Origin: Candidatus Bathyarchaeia archaeon
GTDB lineage: Bacteria > Hydrogenedentota > Hydrogenedentia > Hydrogenedentales > SLHB01
DNA length: 64,000 nucleotides
Direction of reading: 5' to 3'
NCBI GenBank assembly: GCA_035530195.1
Contig: DATKVG010000217.1
Coordinates: forward strand, 5,241 to 69,240
The position numbers and the translations under genes were made by a program. Under the pieces are notes generated by a model. The model was not told the DNA's origin and did no database searches. It saw nothing but the letters and a program-made list of their open reading frames with translations. Shown here piece after piece: positions 22,387-58,509 of the stretch. The stretch's first letter is position 1. Each line of letters starts with the position of its first letter.

Positions 22387-23115
22387 CTATTCGGCGATGC
22401 GCGCCGTCTTGACGTAATCCAGCCGAGGGAACGTCCGCTCGAGGTACGAGTTGCCTTCCGCCGTGATCCGCCCTTGATTCGGCATCTCCCTGTACTCCGA
22501 GTTGATCTTCTTCACGACGTCGAAACCCTCCACCACCTTGCCGAACGGCGAAAAGCCCAGAGGGTCAAGCCGGGCGTTGTTCTCGAGGTTGATGAAAAGC
22601 TGCGCAGTTCGCGTGTTTGGCCCGCCGGTTGCATACGTGATCGTCCCGGGAGCGTTGGTCTCCTTGACCGGATCGTCTTTAATCCGCTTCTTTTCCCACT
22701 CGGCCGCCACCTTCGGATCGCCGTTAAGCCCGAATTGCACCACAAAACCCGGCAGCACACGGAAAAACCGGTTGCCGTCGTAATAGTTCGCTTTCACCAG
22801 TTCTTCAAACCGTTGCGCACCAATCGGCGCCCAATCCCGGTGGACTTCAACGACAAAATCCCCGCCGCTGGTCTCGAACTTCACTTTGAACACGTTCGCG
22901 TCCGGTTTGGTATCGGATGGAGCGGGTTCTTTCACGGACTTCTCCTTTTCCCCGCCAGATGCGGCGGCCTCCGCGTTGCTGTCCAGTTGTTTTTGCACTT
23001 CCTTCGCCTTCTCGAGCCGGTCAGCGGTCAGCCGATCCGGCTGAAAATGGTTCAGCACCAGCAGCCCCGCCACCACTACCACCACACCCACGGCAACTTG
23101 TATCAATTTCTTCAT
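22387..23115 (-). CDS. exported cyclophilin-type peptidyl-prolyl cis-trans isomerase
   Basis: Start at MKKLIQVAVGVVVVVAGLLVL (GGAGA 9 nt upstream). FFRVLPGFVVQFG and GTITYATGGPNTRTAQLFINL form the cyclophilin core. Confidence 0.85.
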   Translation of the reverse strand: MKKLIQVAVGVVVVVAGLLVLNHFQPDRLTADRLEKAKEVQKQLDSNAEAAASGGEKEKSVKEPAPSDTKPDANVFKVKFETSGGDFVVEVHRDWAPIGAQRFEELVKANYYDGNRFFRVLPGFVVQFGLNGDPKVAAEWEKKRIKDDPVKETNAPGTITYATGGPNTRTAQLFINLENNARLDPLGFSPFGKVVEGFDVVKKINSEYREMPNQGRITAEGNSYLERTFPRLDYVKTARIAE

Positions 23116-23297
23116 TGCGCACTCTCCACATTCACGGAAACCCGTCTTGATAAAGCTCAATCATACCTGCCGCAGCCTCCCGCTTGCAACGCGAGCCCCT
23201 CGTTGCACTCAGCTTCACCGGGGTGGGTGACCCGCCTGTTGGCTACTGCACTTTCACTATCAAGACGCGCATAGGGCCTCTTCATGGTTCACCAACA

Positions 23298-23371
23298 AAT
23301 CCTGTCAATCCTGTTATCCCGTCCAACTTAGAAGCCAAAAAGTCAGACAGGATAACAGGATTTACAGGATT
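23298..23371. other. long imperfect hairpin (26 bp stem, 2 mismatches, 22 nt loop)
   Basis: aatcctgtcaatcctgttatcccgtc (23298-23323) pairs with gacaggataacaggatttacaggatt (23346-23371). Confidence 0.85.
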
Positions 23372-23469
23372 GACTTCCGAAAACGCCGGGCGTCCCCGCC
23401 ATACGAACGGAACTGCGCTGTAGGCACAGAACTACGCGCCAGACGCAGAACTGCCCTCTCCGCGCAGGC

Positions 23470-23772
23470 CCGCGCTGTAGGCGCGGAACGCAATAGGCCG
23501 GGGCAACGCCCCATAAGCGCTAACATAAGGCGAGTCCGCTCTCGCGCACTACGTTTTAGCCCGCTTGAGCGGGCTCCTCTTTGCACCCGTCTTTAGACGG
23601 GGTGACCATAGCTTAACTCTTCTCGACAGCGCGCTTTAGCGCGACTTCAAAACGGCTTCAGCAACAACTCTCAGTATCAGGCAAGAGCACTGTTAAGGCG
23701 CTTAAGTTAGCGCATATGGAGCAACGCACCGGTGATACGACCCAACAATAAAGCCACCACGCTGAAAGCGTG
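23470..23772. other. array of eight short GC-rich hairpins with different stems; the first five are spaced 28-30 nt apart
   Basis: Hairpins start at 23470, 23500, 23530, 23558, 23586, 23630, 23698 and 23758. Several have a C-TTNA-G centre (gcTTGAgc, tcTTTAga, gcTTTAgc). See findings. Confidence 0.7.
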
Positions 23773-23910
23773 ACAGGATCCTCACCTTTTCAGTTTGCAT
23801 TGCCCCGACGCCGGTACTACACTAGCCGACCGAGGGGAGTACTAACAGCGCCGACGTTGTACGCGCCACCGCGCGCCAACAACCCGCCCGCGCCGTAAAC
23901 GCGCACGGCG

Positions 23911-26643
23911 ATGCAAACGGCCGCAACCAAAACGGAGCTGGATCTCGTGCCCGACTATTCATCCAAGGAGATCGCGGACCGAGTCGCCCAAGCCGCACGC
24001 GGCGGCTGGGAAAACTTAGATCTGATGCAGTGTCAGGTCCAAGTCGCGGACCTCCGCAAGCTCCTGGACGAACCCGGCATCGAACAGCTTCAGTCGCTGG
24101 ACCTCGACAGCAACCGGCTCTCGACGCTTCCCACGGAGATCGGCCGGCTCACCGCTCTGACATGGTTCGATCTCCGCAACAACCAACTCTCGACGCTTCC
24201 GCCGGAGATCGGACGGCTCACCGCTCTGACGAGGCTGTGGCTCTCCAACAACCGGCTCTCGACGCTTCCCACGGAGATCGGCCGGCTCACCGCCCTGACA
24301 TCGCTGTGGCTCAACGACAACCAACTCTCGACGCTTCCGGCGGAGATCGGCCGGCTCACGGCCCTGACAGAACTGTACCTCCACAACAACCAACTCTCGA
24401 CGCTTCCCGCGGAGATCGCCCGGCTCACCGCCCTGACAACGCTGTGGCTCAACGGCAACCAACTGTCGACGCTTCCGGCGGAGATCGGCCGGCTCACCGC
24501 CCTGACGGCGCTGTGGCTCTACAACAACCAACTCTCGACGCTTCCGGCGGAGATCGGCCGGCTCACCGCCCTTGAGCGGCTCTTCCTGCACGGCAACGAC
24601 GCCCTCGCGATACCGCCGGAAATTCTCGGCCCCACGTGGAACGAGGTCGGACCTGGCAAGAAGCCGGCAGCGCCGTCGGCGATTCTCGATTATTACTTCC
24701 GGACGCGGGCCGCGGCGGGCACGCGCGCCTTGAACGAGGTAAAGGTGATCCTGGTAGGCCAGGGGGCCGTGGGTAAGACGTCGCTCGTGAAGCAGATCGT
24801 TCATAACACGTTCAATAAGCGGGAACGAAAAACCAAGGGCATATACATCGAGAAGGCGTGGAGCGTCCCGGGGAAGAAGAAGGGGGAGAAGGTGCAGGTG
24901 AATTTCTGGGATTTCGGCGGCCAGGAGATCATGCATGCCACCCACCAGTTTTTCCTTACAAAACGTACGGTTTATCTGCTGGTGGTCGATGCCCGGAAAG
25001 GCGAAAACGAGAGCAACATCCACTATTGGCTGAAGATCATCCGGAGTTTCGGCGGCGAGTCGCCGGTGCTGGTGATCACCAACAAGTGCGACGCCCATCA
25101 TCTCGAACTGAACGAAACCCGGCTCAAGAAGGACTATCCGAACATCCGCGGATTCTACCGGACTTCCTGCGAGACCGGCGACGGCATAAAAGAACTCAAA
25201 GCGGCTATCGAGAAACAGATCCAGGGTCCGGCGATGCGTTACGTGTTCGACTTGCTCCCGAAGGATTACTTCACGGTGAAGGAAAAACTCGAGACGCTGG
25301 CCGAGCAGCGCAACTATATCGACATCCGCGACTATTACGCGCTGTGTACTCAAAACGGCGTGACCGACAACGAGGAACAGGACCGGTTGCTTCGGTTTCT
25401 GCACGACCTGGGCAGCGTGCTCAGTTTCACGGACCCGGACAGCCCGCTGGCCGTGCGCGAGACCAGCGTGCTCAACCCGCACTGGGTGACCCAGGGTGTG
25501 TACAAGATCCTCAACGACGAGCAACTCGCACGTGCCGGCGGCGTCCTCGAGGCGGACGACCTGCCCCGCATTCTCAAAGGTAAAACACATCCGGTCGAGT
25601 GCCACCCGTTCATTGTGGGCATGATGCACAAGTTTGAACTGTGTTTTACCATCAAAGAGGACCGGAAATGGCTTGTGACCGAACTGCTGCCCAAGAAGGA
25701 ACCGCCAAAACTCGCGGAGTGGGAAGATGCGTTGCGGTTCCAGTACCATTACGACGTTCTGCCGGGCGGCATCATCTGCCGCTTCATGGTCCGTCGCTAT
25801 GAAGACCTCACCAGGCCGCCGACGTACTGGCGCAGCGGCGTTGTGCTCGAGATGGACCGGTGTAAGGCCCTCGTCCGCAGCGATACCGACAAAGGCCGGA
25901 TGTACATCGCCGTAACGGGGCCCGAAGGCGGCCGCCGCCCGTTGTTGTCGGTCATCCGCGACGAGTTCGCCCGCATCCACCGCACGATCCCCGGCCTGCT
26001 GCCCAAACAAATGGTGCCACTGTGGGACAACCCGGACATCGTGGTGTCGCATGAGCATTTGTTGACCCTAGAGCAAGAGCGCGTGGAAGACTTCATCCCG
26101 GATGGCGCCGGTAAGCGTTATACGGTGAAAGAGATGTTGGACGGAATTGAGTTTGCCTGGCTGCGCGAGTTTGGGGAATCGCATCTGTATCCGCCCCTGT
26201 TTGTTGTCGCGCCGCAGAAGTCTTTCCCCGATGCCTGGGAAGTGTTTTGTTGCGAGGTGCTCAACCGCTACTACAAGACAGACAAAATTCGTCAGCGGAA
26301 ACCTCCGGAAAACGGTGTGGATTTGTACTGCCCAAAGACAAAGACGGCGTTCCAATGCAAGTCGGTCGAGAAAGCGGCGGGCAAGTTCAATATCACCAAT
26401 GCGGAGGAATCGCTGCGGCGTGCGCTCGAGATACGCAAAACGCTGCCTTGGAAGAAGTACGCGTTGTGCAGCAACATAGCGTTAACCGAGCCCCAAGAGA
26501 AGAAGTTGCGAGCCACGTTTCCGGACATCGAGTTTCTTACACCCAGCTTCTGGGTGGCCCGATGCCGGGAGCAGTCGAGATACCTAGGCGACCGTTTCCG
26601 CCGCCTGGAACCGATGCAACGCCGCGGGCCTGCAAAAGCATAG
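23911..26643 (+). CDS. ROCO-type protein: LRR x8, Roc GTPase, COR-like region, C-terminal PD-(D/E)xK (Mrr-like) nuclease-like module
   Basis: aa 60-243 are LRRs (LxxLxLxxNQLSTLPxEIGRLTA). G1 GQGAVGK289TS, G3 WD334FGGQE, G4 TNKCD394, G5-like TSCETG. VLNPHWVTQGVYKIL is COR-like. The C-terminus has WEVFCCEVL...ENGVD804LY...FQ815CK817. Confidence 0.8.
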   Translation: MQTAATKTELDLVPDYSSKEIADRVAQAARGGWENLDLMQCQVQVADLRKLLDEPGIEQLQSLDLDSNRLSTLPTEIGRLTALTWFDLRNNQLSTLPPEIGRLTALTRLWLSNNRLSTLPTEIGRLTALTSLWLNDNQLSTLPAEIGRLTALTELYLHNNQLSTLPAEIARLTALTTLWLNGNQLSTLPAEIGRLTALTALWLYNNQLSTLPAEIGRLTALERLFLHGNDALAIPPEILGPTWNEVGPGKKPAAPSAILDYYFRTRAAAGTRALNEVKVILVGQGAVGKTSLVKQIVHNTFNKRERKTKGIYIEKAWSVPGKKKGEKVQVNFWDFGGQEIMHATHQFFLTKRTVYLLVVDARKGENESNIHYWLKIIRSFGGESPVLVITNKCDAHHLELNETRLKKDYPNIRGFYRTSCETGDGIKELKAAIEKQIQGPAMRYVFDLLPKDYFTVKEKLETLAEQRNYIDIRDYYALCTQNGVTDNEEQDRLLRFLHDLGSVLSFTDPDSPLAVRETSVLNPHWVTQGVYKILNDEQLARAGGVLEADDLPRILKGKTHPVECHPFIVGMMHKFELCFTIKEDRKWLVTELLPKKEPPKLAEWEDALRFQYHYDVLPGGIICRFMVRRYEDLTRPPTYWRSGVVLEMDRCKALVRSDTDKGRMYIAVTGPEGGRRPLLSVIRDEFARIHRTIPGLLPKQMVPLWDNPDIVVSHEHLLTLEQERVEDFIPDGAGKRYTVKEMLDGIEFAWLREFGESHLYPPLFVVAPQKSFPDAWEVFCCEVLNRYYKTDKIRQRKPPENGVDLYCPKTKTAFQCKSVEKAAGKFNITNAEESLRRALEIRKTLPWKKYALCSNIALTEPQEKKLRATFPDIEFLTPSFWVARCREQSRYLGDRFRRLEPMQRRGPAKA
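24088..24570 (+). repeat. 7 x 69 bp near-identical tandem DNA repeats encoding the LRRs
   Basis: Blocks such as caaccaactctcgacgcttccggcggagatcggccggctcaccgccctgac recur almost verbatim at a 69 nt period. Confidence 0.9.
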
Positions 26644-26677
26644 GCCGATACCTGTTCCAAACCACATCCCAGGCGCC

Positions 26678-26703
26678 TTGTGGTGCGGGCGTCTCGCCTG
26701 CAC
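26678..26703. repeat. dispersed element, family A (ttgtggtgcgggcgtcYcgcctgcac)
   Basis: The same 26-mer, with 1 mismatch, occurs at 37206-37231. A variant, ttgtagcgcaggcgtcccgcctgcat, is at 37242-37267. Confidence 0.85.
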
Positions 26704-26774
26704 AGTCCCGTAGGGACGTTCTTTGAGCAGCCCAGGACTGATACGGGCATCCCCGCAGGGGACTTCTTTCCAGC

Positions 26775-58387: not shown

Positions 58388-58509
58388 GACAATGGGCTCG
58401 AAGAGTCAGGGTTTTTTTGACGAGCGGCGTCTGGGACACCCCCCGGCCGCGCCGAAGGCGCCGCACTTTAGTGCGCCTTTGTTGAGGGCATGTCCATTTT
58501 CTCACTCCC

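Follow-up and report, generated by a model that had tools for sequence, protein, structure and literature searches.

A hairpin-rich spacer 5' of a ROCO gene is a mosaic of dispersed repeats enclosing a three-hairpin element that also brackets Y1 transposase genes

In REPtrons, also described as REPIN-RAYT systems, a single-copy Y1/HUH gene lies between inverted extragenic palindromic repeats, which number in the tens, stand either alone or as inverted doublets, and are patchily distributed among relatives (Nunvar et al. 2010, PMC2817692; Bertels & Rainey 2011, PMC3116915). In TIRtrons (TIRYT), long TIRs take the place of the REPs on either side of the Y1 gene; as repeat families they are moderately abundant and comprise single, dimeric and clustered copies (Di Nocera, De Gregorio & Rocco 2013, PMC3733652). 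Most TIRYTs were later assigned to subclass 2.1, which has C-terminal HTH domains and a Y motif of the YIELNP type (PMC6006769). The same classification describes a TnpA-Y1 subclass 1.2, mainly from Cyanobacteria and Bacteroidetes, that was reported without REP-like structures (Quentin, Siguier, Chandler & Fichant 2018, PMC6006769). In the IS200/IS605 elements (IS608, ISDra2), HUH and YxxxQ catalytic motifs go together with hairpin ends that bear a conserved tetranucleotide 5' of the stem foot; the ends are direct-orientation hairpins on one strand, there are no TIRs, and the gene is multi-copy.

Here we compare these systems with a spacer that lies between a cyclophilin gene and a ROCO gene in a 64,000-nt stretch of DNA (the window; C217:5241-69240) of assembly G000 (4.77 Mb in 232 contigs, about 87% complete). 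The spacer holds one copy of a 112-nt repeat with three hairpins, and other copies of this repeat bracket Y1 genes. The layout is that of REPtrons and TIRtrons/TIRYT, and the protein motifs fit subclass 1.2. The hairpin stretch in the window is very probably a nest of mobile non-coding repeats, in which the three-hairpin core is a solo, well-preserved 112-nt copy of a REPtron/TIRtron-type element with no dedicated role for the ROCO gene.

Composition of the hairpin-rich spacer

The original prediction had described eight hairpins in this spacer, which is about 750-790 nt long, and had read them as a periodic array. A script that searched for non-overlapping hairpins with a perfect stem (5 bp or longer, three or more GC pairs) and a loop of 3-6 nt recovered exactly these eight with the stems and loops that had been listed (Table 1), and the first five indeed start 28-30 nt apart. 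On either strand, 23465-23780 folds better than all 100 of its dinucleotide-shuffled versions (z = -3.70 and -3.99). When 674 spacers of at least 316 nt, delimited genome-wide in G000 by a crude gene caller, were scored by their densest 316-nt window, only three reached eight hairpins, this one included, and the median was 2. In the comparison with ordinary intergenic DNA that the prediction had proposed, the array is therefore an outlier. Most of the other hairpin-dense spacers hold the same repeat families as this one.

Table 1. Genes and repeat features in and around the hairpin-rich spacer (window coordinates; hairpins numbered 5' to 3')
Feature	Position	Strand	Script-recovered hairpin	Remarks
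Cyclophilin-type PPIase gene	ORF 22387-23160	-		real start near 23117 by homology with a relative
Indel block	23196-26745			repeat-laden spacer, ROCO gene and about 100 nt of 3' flank; absent in the same-genus genome G001
Long inverted repeat of ATCCTGT words	23298-23371			74 nt; head of the spacer; separate dispersed family, outside the hairpin array
Weak 19-nt-period repeat	23411-23494		1: 23470-23486	GAAC every 19 nt; hairpin 1 in the fourth unit
Hairpin 2 (GGCCGGGGCAACGCCCC)	23495-23512		2: 23500-23512	separate short-hairpin repeat family
MITE-like shell enclosing the core	23513-23717			TIRs at about 23513-23529 and 23701-23717
Hairpin 3	23530-23545		3: 23530-23545	between left TIR and core; not conserved in other shell copies
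Core (112-nt three-hairpin repeat copy)	23553-23664	+		covariance model R1, 119.5 bits; blastn, nhmmer
Core hairpin A (hairpin 4)	23558-23575		4: 23558-23575	followed by linker CTCCTCTTTG
Core hairpin B (hairpin 5)	23584-23604		5: 23586-23601	bulged G; followed by about 25 variable nt
Core hairpin C (hairpin 6)	23629-23645		6: 23630-23643	bulged A
Core terminal motif GCTTCAGC	23656-23663			unpaired
Hairpin 7	23698-23713		7: 23698-23713	part of the right TIR of the shell
Hairpin 8 (CACGCTGAAAGCGTG) with flanks	23755-23780		8: 23758-23772	another dispersed hairpin family
LRR-Roc-COR (ROCO) gene	23911-26643	+		3' of the hairpin-rich spacer, same strand as the array

Blast of the spacer against the whole G000 assembly revealed that the array is a mosaic of dispersed repeats rather than one periodic array. 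The stem sequences do differ, as predicted, but this is not variation inside a single array: the hairpins come from several unrelated repeat families. Given these different origins, the 28-30-nt spacing is partly a property of the core, in which the distance from hairpin A to hairpin B is fixed, and partly coincidence.

Two of the outer hairpins belong to short families of their own. Hairpin 2 has 18/18 identical matches at C216:13591, C216:13724, C208:18401 and C211:23467, and a diverged direct copy of it (GGAGCAACGCACC, 23718-23730; direct repeat D8) lies just outside the shell. The hairpin 8 region has a 26-nt match (96%) at C208:18422-18447 and further matches in C211 and C216, and forms a terminator-like site on the minus strand (23776-23754). 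The two families were found travelling together at C48, C208 and C211. Upstream of them, the 19-nt repeats that had been noticed before the array are present, with GAAC recurring every 19 nt and one direct repeat (D3) of 18 nt, 89% identical, at a spacing of 57 = 3 x 19; they are weak, however, and were missed by Tandem Repeats Finder at score 30. At the head of the spacer, the 74-nt palindrome (inverted repeat I1, whose 32-nt arms are 88% complementary) is built from AATCCTGTnAATCCTGTTATCCTGTC, a run of three ATCCTGT heptads with about 14 genomic matches (e.g., C48:1158-1184, C211:23561-23588 and C211:26364-26391). Several copies of AATCCTGTnAATCCTGTTATCCTGTC sit 20-60 nt upstream of start codons; the word may serve as a promoter or operator, or may be one more repeat family.

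The core sits inside a shell whose arms, as delimited by repeat finding, are 23498-23529 and 23701-23732 (inverted repeat I2, 32 nt, 78% complementary). The shell TIR, about 20 nt long and resembling AATGGCRCTAAGATAAGG, also flanks the core at about nine other places in G000. At C22:17088-17330, a 22-nt version of the TIR (CACGAATGGCACTAAGATAAG) encloses about 200 nt of unrelated cargo, which indicates that the shell is a MITE-like element in its own right. Both facts, the recurrent enclosure of the core at about 10 places and that of unrelated cargo, are also what one would expect if the shell (23513-23717) were a cut-and-paste MITE moved by a DDE-type transposase, with the core as mere cargo and the Y1 enzyme taking no part in this insertion. 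The diverged 13-nt direct repeat that flanks the shell (23500-23512 and 23718-23730) can be read in the same way, but it belongs to the palindromic family of hairpin 2 and hence need not be a target-site duplication, and no transposase gene was linked to the shell TIRs. We regard such a delivery as rather unlikely; it would touch the arrival route only and is compatible with the nest of mobile repeats that we favor.

A further hairpin near 58466 (cgcacTTTAgtgcg; at 58462-58475 by contig arithmetic, 4 nt off the coordinates first given) had been taken for one of the same kind, and a genome-wide census of hairpins with the TTNA loop had been proposed. This census found 204 in G000, of which 94 lie inside core copies and 110 outside, compared with 73-81 in mononucleotide-shuffled genomes. 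The excess outside the core is modest and leaves no large genome-wide class, and the hairpin near 58466, which falls within no copy of the three-hairpin repeat, is therefore background.

The three-hairpin repeat and the covariation of its stems

By blast, the segment 23551-23667 has about 40 relatives in G000 at 75-90% identity, many of them in inverted pairs and several at contig ends. A covariance model (R1) was built from 31 own-genome copies, and nhmmer was used as well; R1 gave 45 matches to the 112-nt unit in the assembly, among which the window copy is the third best. The unit is laid out as hairpin A (TTAGCCyGC-TTNA-GCrGGCT), the linker CCTCTTTG, hairpin B (CACCCnnn-TTNA-nnnGGG(G)TG), about 25 variable nt, hairpin C (AGCnCGC-TTYA-GCGnG(A)C), TT plus about 6 nt, and finally GCTTTAGC, with one bulged base in each of the second and third stems. 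In G000, both ends of the unit carry TTAGC. Across phyla, the features that are kept are the GCTTYAGC apex on all three hairpins, a TTTG before hairpin B, and a fourth, unpaired GCTTYAGC at one end. In the papers searched, we found no description of the three-hairpin unit.

The stems are preserved while their sequences change. In the 31 own-genome copies, 98.9% of stem cells are paired across the three stems, and double-sided changes occur at 8/21 pairs (59 cells), a count that includes changes inherited within subfamilies and thus overstates independent events, but that was matched by 0/500 shuffles. Sliding the stem partners in this alignment lowers pairing to 26-45%, and RNAalifold independently finds the three helices. 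Among 91 copies from other phyla (alignment A3), whose fitting to the model inflates both the pairing figures and the G.T excess, 98.1% of stem cells are paired and double changes are seen at 16/21 pairs, with the same reservation about inherited changes. On the strand with the TTYA loops, G.T wobbles outnumber A.C mismatches by 21 to 5 and by 48 to 16, an excess subject to this inflation, which hints that the TTYA-loop strand is the one that folds.

The element is scattered as singles and inverted doublets almost exclusively between genes: 40/41 copies checked with the crude gene caller are intergenic, in a genome in which about 80% of the DNA is coding. Copies occur in both orientations, whether the neighboring genes are tandem, divergent or convergent; this speaks against an RNA role tied to one strand. 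The idea of a selected structure or BIME-like repeat was thus essentially right for hairpins 4-6, which are dispersed, extragenic, covarying and linked to Y1 genes as REPs are to RAYTs; what it did not anticipate is that the window holds a single core copy among other repeats rather than a decayed array of one unit. For the same reason, a BIME proper, with one REP family at regular spacing and in alternating orientation, was rejected, the other hairpins being members of other families.

Two kinds of composite copies were seen elsewhere in the assembly. At C110:17716-17848 and C11:15947-16040, an extra 18-nt hairpin (CGGCCGTCTCCGGCCGAC or CGACCGTCTTCGGTCGGC) is nested in the A-B linker of the core. 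A sharply bounded element of about 330 nt, which starts with TTAAATGAC and ends with CTTGCTTA, carries the core in its middle and a CCCCCGGCAsAGCCGGGGG hairpin in direct orientation near both ends, an end geometry like that of IS200/IS605; it breaks several contigs and was located at C190:13500-13950, C38:4200-4650, C123, C197:40450-40900, C122:27400-27648, C112, C20, C17 and C171.

Y1 transposase genes bracketed by the repeat

A Pfam Y1_Tnp scan of 41 relatives returned four Y1 genes positioned between two R1 matches. In G000 itself (contig C216, locus L017), a plus-strand core (551-661), an ORF (660-1109) and a minus-strand core (1103-1213) follow one another so closely that the single-copy gene, which encodes 149 aa, is abutted by two inverted core copies: its ATG directly follows the terminal GTCTTTAGC of the first, with a GGAGG 9 nt upstream and within the repeat, and its stop codon lies within the GGCTGAAGCC of the second. 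The same inverted bracket surrounds the Y1 gene in G011 (C17) and G003 (C24), while G013 has an upstream doublet only and the downstream copy is absent. Blast of the window spacer against all 11 Y1 loci of G000 matched the core alone, and at C216 only; hairpins 1-3, 7 and 8 are tied to no other Y1 gene. Adjoining the Y1 gene and its right repeat, L017:1134-1740 (G000:C216:24930-25540) consists of tandem units of about 60 nt (CATTTCCGCGATCCGTCCCCTTGGTTTCCTGC...) with long spurious ORFs in several frames.

The repeat was found in 7/41 relatives, all of the window's family, at 12-68 copies each. A Y1 gene of this clade, always as a single copy, is present in 4/7 repeat-bearing genomes versus 0/34 others (hypergeometric P about 3.5e-4, our own calculation); it was not detected in the repeat-bearing genomes G001, G010 and G023, which are 80-93% complete. 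A scan of one genome per species with Y1 proteins extended the association to 80 loci from at least five phyla, comprising Sumerlaeota, Hydrogenedentota, Planctomycetota (Planctomycetia and Phycisphaerae), Verrucomicrobiota and Acidobacteriota. At most of these loci, a plus-strand R1 copy ends at about 1190-1200 and a minus-strand copy starts at about 1610-1640, with the gene in between.

The Y1 proteins are 149-156 aa long and 49-58% identical to one another. They share an H-V-H (HUH) motif, an invariant WQRGYG and the tyrosine motif RYVxxQ(K/R)EHH, in which YV..Q.EHH is invariant, and Y1_Tnp is their sole Pfam match, with no extra domain. Among NCBIfam models, IS200 (NF033573) scores 49-71 bits, whereas the REP-associated tyrosine transposase model (NF047646) scores 16.6-20.4 bits against a cut-off of 80, placing the protein outside the RAYT/TnpA-REP clade and closer to the TnpA of IS200/IS605. 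The closest solved structures are likewise ISDra2 and IS608 TnpA (E about 5e-9), and the RAYT structure 4ER8 was not among the PDB matches at E <= 0.01. By comparison of motifs, the proteins fit TnpA-Y1 subclass 1.2 (PMC6006769), with which they share Y---Q--HH, the WQ motif, a length close to the median of 148 aa and a low copy number. Subclass 2.1, which holds most TIRYTs, differs from the proteins here in its added domains and in its Y motif (Y---Q-EHH here), and the motifs of class 3 (W[TA], YV[VI][AENY]EQ, 178 aa and a CnGA foot; PMC6006769) differ as well.

The arrangement of the repeats, in turn, combines features of several systems. Like the REPs, the element is present in tens, both singly and as inverted doublets, is patchily distributed among relatives, and brackets a single-copy Y1 gene. 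In G000, 45 repeat copies stand against one gene of the Y1 clade, as in a REP/RAYT pair. Some canonical REPs (Haemophilus influenzae, GTAGGGTGGGCTTYAGCCCACC) have the GCTTYAGC apex too. A REP, however, is one imperfect palindrome of 20-40 nt, whereas the unit here has 112 nt, three hairpins and a fourth, unpaired motif, and the 5' GTAG/GTGG head of REPs is absent, with TTTG preceding hairpin B instead. The likeness to TIRtrons lies in Y1 genes flanked by long inverted repeats that are also dispersed as repeat families, moderately abundant and made up of single, dimeric and clustered copies. The TIRtron motif GGGGWSAS can be matched to GGGGTGAC, which the window copy has 3' in hairpin B, but the cross-phylum consensus is GGTGG. 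With IS200/IS605, the system shares the catalytic motifs and hairpins with a conserved tetranucleotide 5' of the stem foot, but its ends are inverted, and the gene is single-copy in each of four genomes, with only the ends multiplied.

Two other classes of hairpin elements were considered and set aside. An integron attC site, suggested by the bulged bases and the GTTAGCC-like start, does not agree with copies that are dispersed, arranged in inverted pairs and flanking a Y1 gene. A TnpB omega-RNA or an IS110 bridge RNA scaffold was rejected since the copies examined have neither a tnpB nor an IS110 gene next to them.

Relation of the array to the ROCO gene and to its likely enzyme

The original prediction had proposed that the array, lying 5' of the ROCO gene and on the same strand, could be a regulatory or partner RNA of that gene. 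A structured small RNA or cis-regulatory leader acting on or with the ROCO gene would account for the strong compensatory covariation and for the strand bias of the wobble pairs, but the distribution of the element speaks against it. The 45 copies lie in both orientations beside unrelated genes, and across phyla inverted copies of the element consistently flank a transposase gene. Five further genera of the family carry it, and the four genomes searched among them (G003, G010, G011 and G013) have no ROCO homologue at E <= 1e-30; at this threshold, only 1/24 relatives has a homologue (49% identical), and its contig breaks off within the gene. A search next to the orthologous cyclophilin genes of six relatives did not find the element. 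In the same-genus genome G001 (locus L024), the cyclophilin and lipid-A acyltransferase genes (83% and 81% identical) are only 148 nt apart, so the spacer repeats and the ROCO gene together constitute an indel. Compared with G001, the ROCO gene looks like a lineage-specific insertion with repeats at its border.

No promoter-like site was found on the plus strand of 22900-24100, and a scan for tRNA and tmRNA returned no match in the window. A permissive Rfam scan of 22800-24300 gave nothing at the gathering threshold, the best match being a miRNA model on the palindrome 23298-23371, at 30.9 bits versus a threshold of 90. The loops of the element are not known as stable RNA tetraloops, which also counts against an RNA acting on the ROCO gene. 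We consider such an RNA very improbable; rather than a dedicated regulator of the ROCO gene, the array is genomic debris of a familiar general kind.

Hairpin repeats recognized on single-stranded DNA are also used by the Ssn-type GIY-YIG single-strand nucleases (PMC11893778), and G000 does encode an SsnA-like gene (C168), so the hairpins might have been recognition sites of such an enzyme with NTS/SRM-like motifs. The SRM pattern (HGTCWY N0-2 YYVSBRH N0-5 WNVSBRG N0-2 RNCYNB), however, matches 0/41 cores and nothing in 23118-23910, and its 45 matches genome-wide compare with 48-50 in shuffled genomes. The C168 gene is flanked by exact NTS repeats of its own that are unrelated to the core, and the core co-occurs with and flanks the Y1 gene rather than an Ssn gene. 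We hold recognition by an Ssn enzyme to be extremely improbable. The C168 locus (C168:12601-13250, outside the window) has the layout that PMC11893778 describes for SsnA and NTS: the Neisseria NTS consensus (CGTCATTCCCGCGCAAGCGGGAATCCAG) has four exact copies there, arranged as two inverted pairs around a small GIY-YIG-looking ORF (MDEKRPAVYILASKRNGTLYTGVT...), and a run of GGGAATGACGC half-sites then follows. These four are the only dRS3-type palindromes in the G000 assembly.

A nest of mobile repeats, with a Y1 enzyme as the partner of the core, could work as follows. The hairpins would fold when the DNA is single-stranded, probably on the TTYA-loop strand, and the Y1 enzyme would recognize them there in the manner of IS200/IS605 ends and REP/RAYT pairs (PMC6006769, PMC2817692), with the conserved tetranucleotide at the foot of hairpin B possibly acting as a guide or GTAG element. 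If the copies that keep their hairpins are the ones that are copied, covariation would be explained without invoking RNA. The two copies that flank the gene are inverted relative to each other, so that they take different forms on any one strand, and the enzyme cannot excise the gene-carrying unit the IS608 way; this fits a sedentary, single-copy Y1 gene whose ends may have been multiplied as singles and doublets, as in REPtrons. The window copy probably came inside the TIR-bounded MITE-like shell, and any activity may be old, given that copies are only about 75-90% identical within the genome.

We also propose, tentatively and at somewhat less than even confidence, that the 112-nt element is the cognate repeat of subclass-1.2-like Y1 transposases, in an ancient REPtron-like system of five phyla (Hydrogenedentota, Sumerlaeota, Planctomycetota, Verrucomicrobiota and Acidobacteriota). 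The enzyme would then read a composite module: three GCTTYAGC-tipped hairpins, the TTTG foot, the bulged bases and, beside the gene, the fourth, unpaired GCTTYAGC.

For the window, these results dispose of a possible regulatory RNA. Mobile repeats have expanded the long spacer ahead of the ROCO gene, and spacer and gene form a lineage-specific block. The three-hairpin core gains a concrete partner in the Y1 transposase instead of an Ssn nuclease. While the array is ordinary for the window and the wider interest is modest, our findings suggest that a Y1 subclass described without associated repeats does have one, possibly an undescribed repeat partner, and the about 200 covarying copies across phyla are a good substrate for studying how HUH/Y1 enzymes read multi-hairpin single-stranded DNA.
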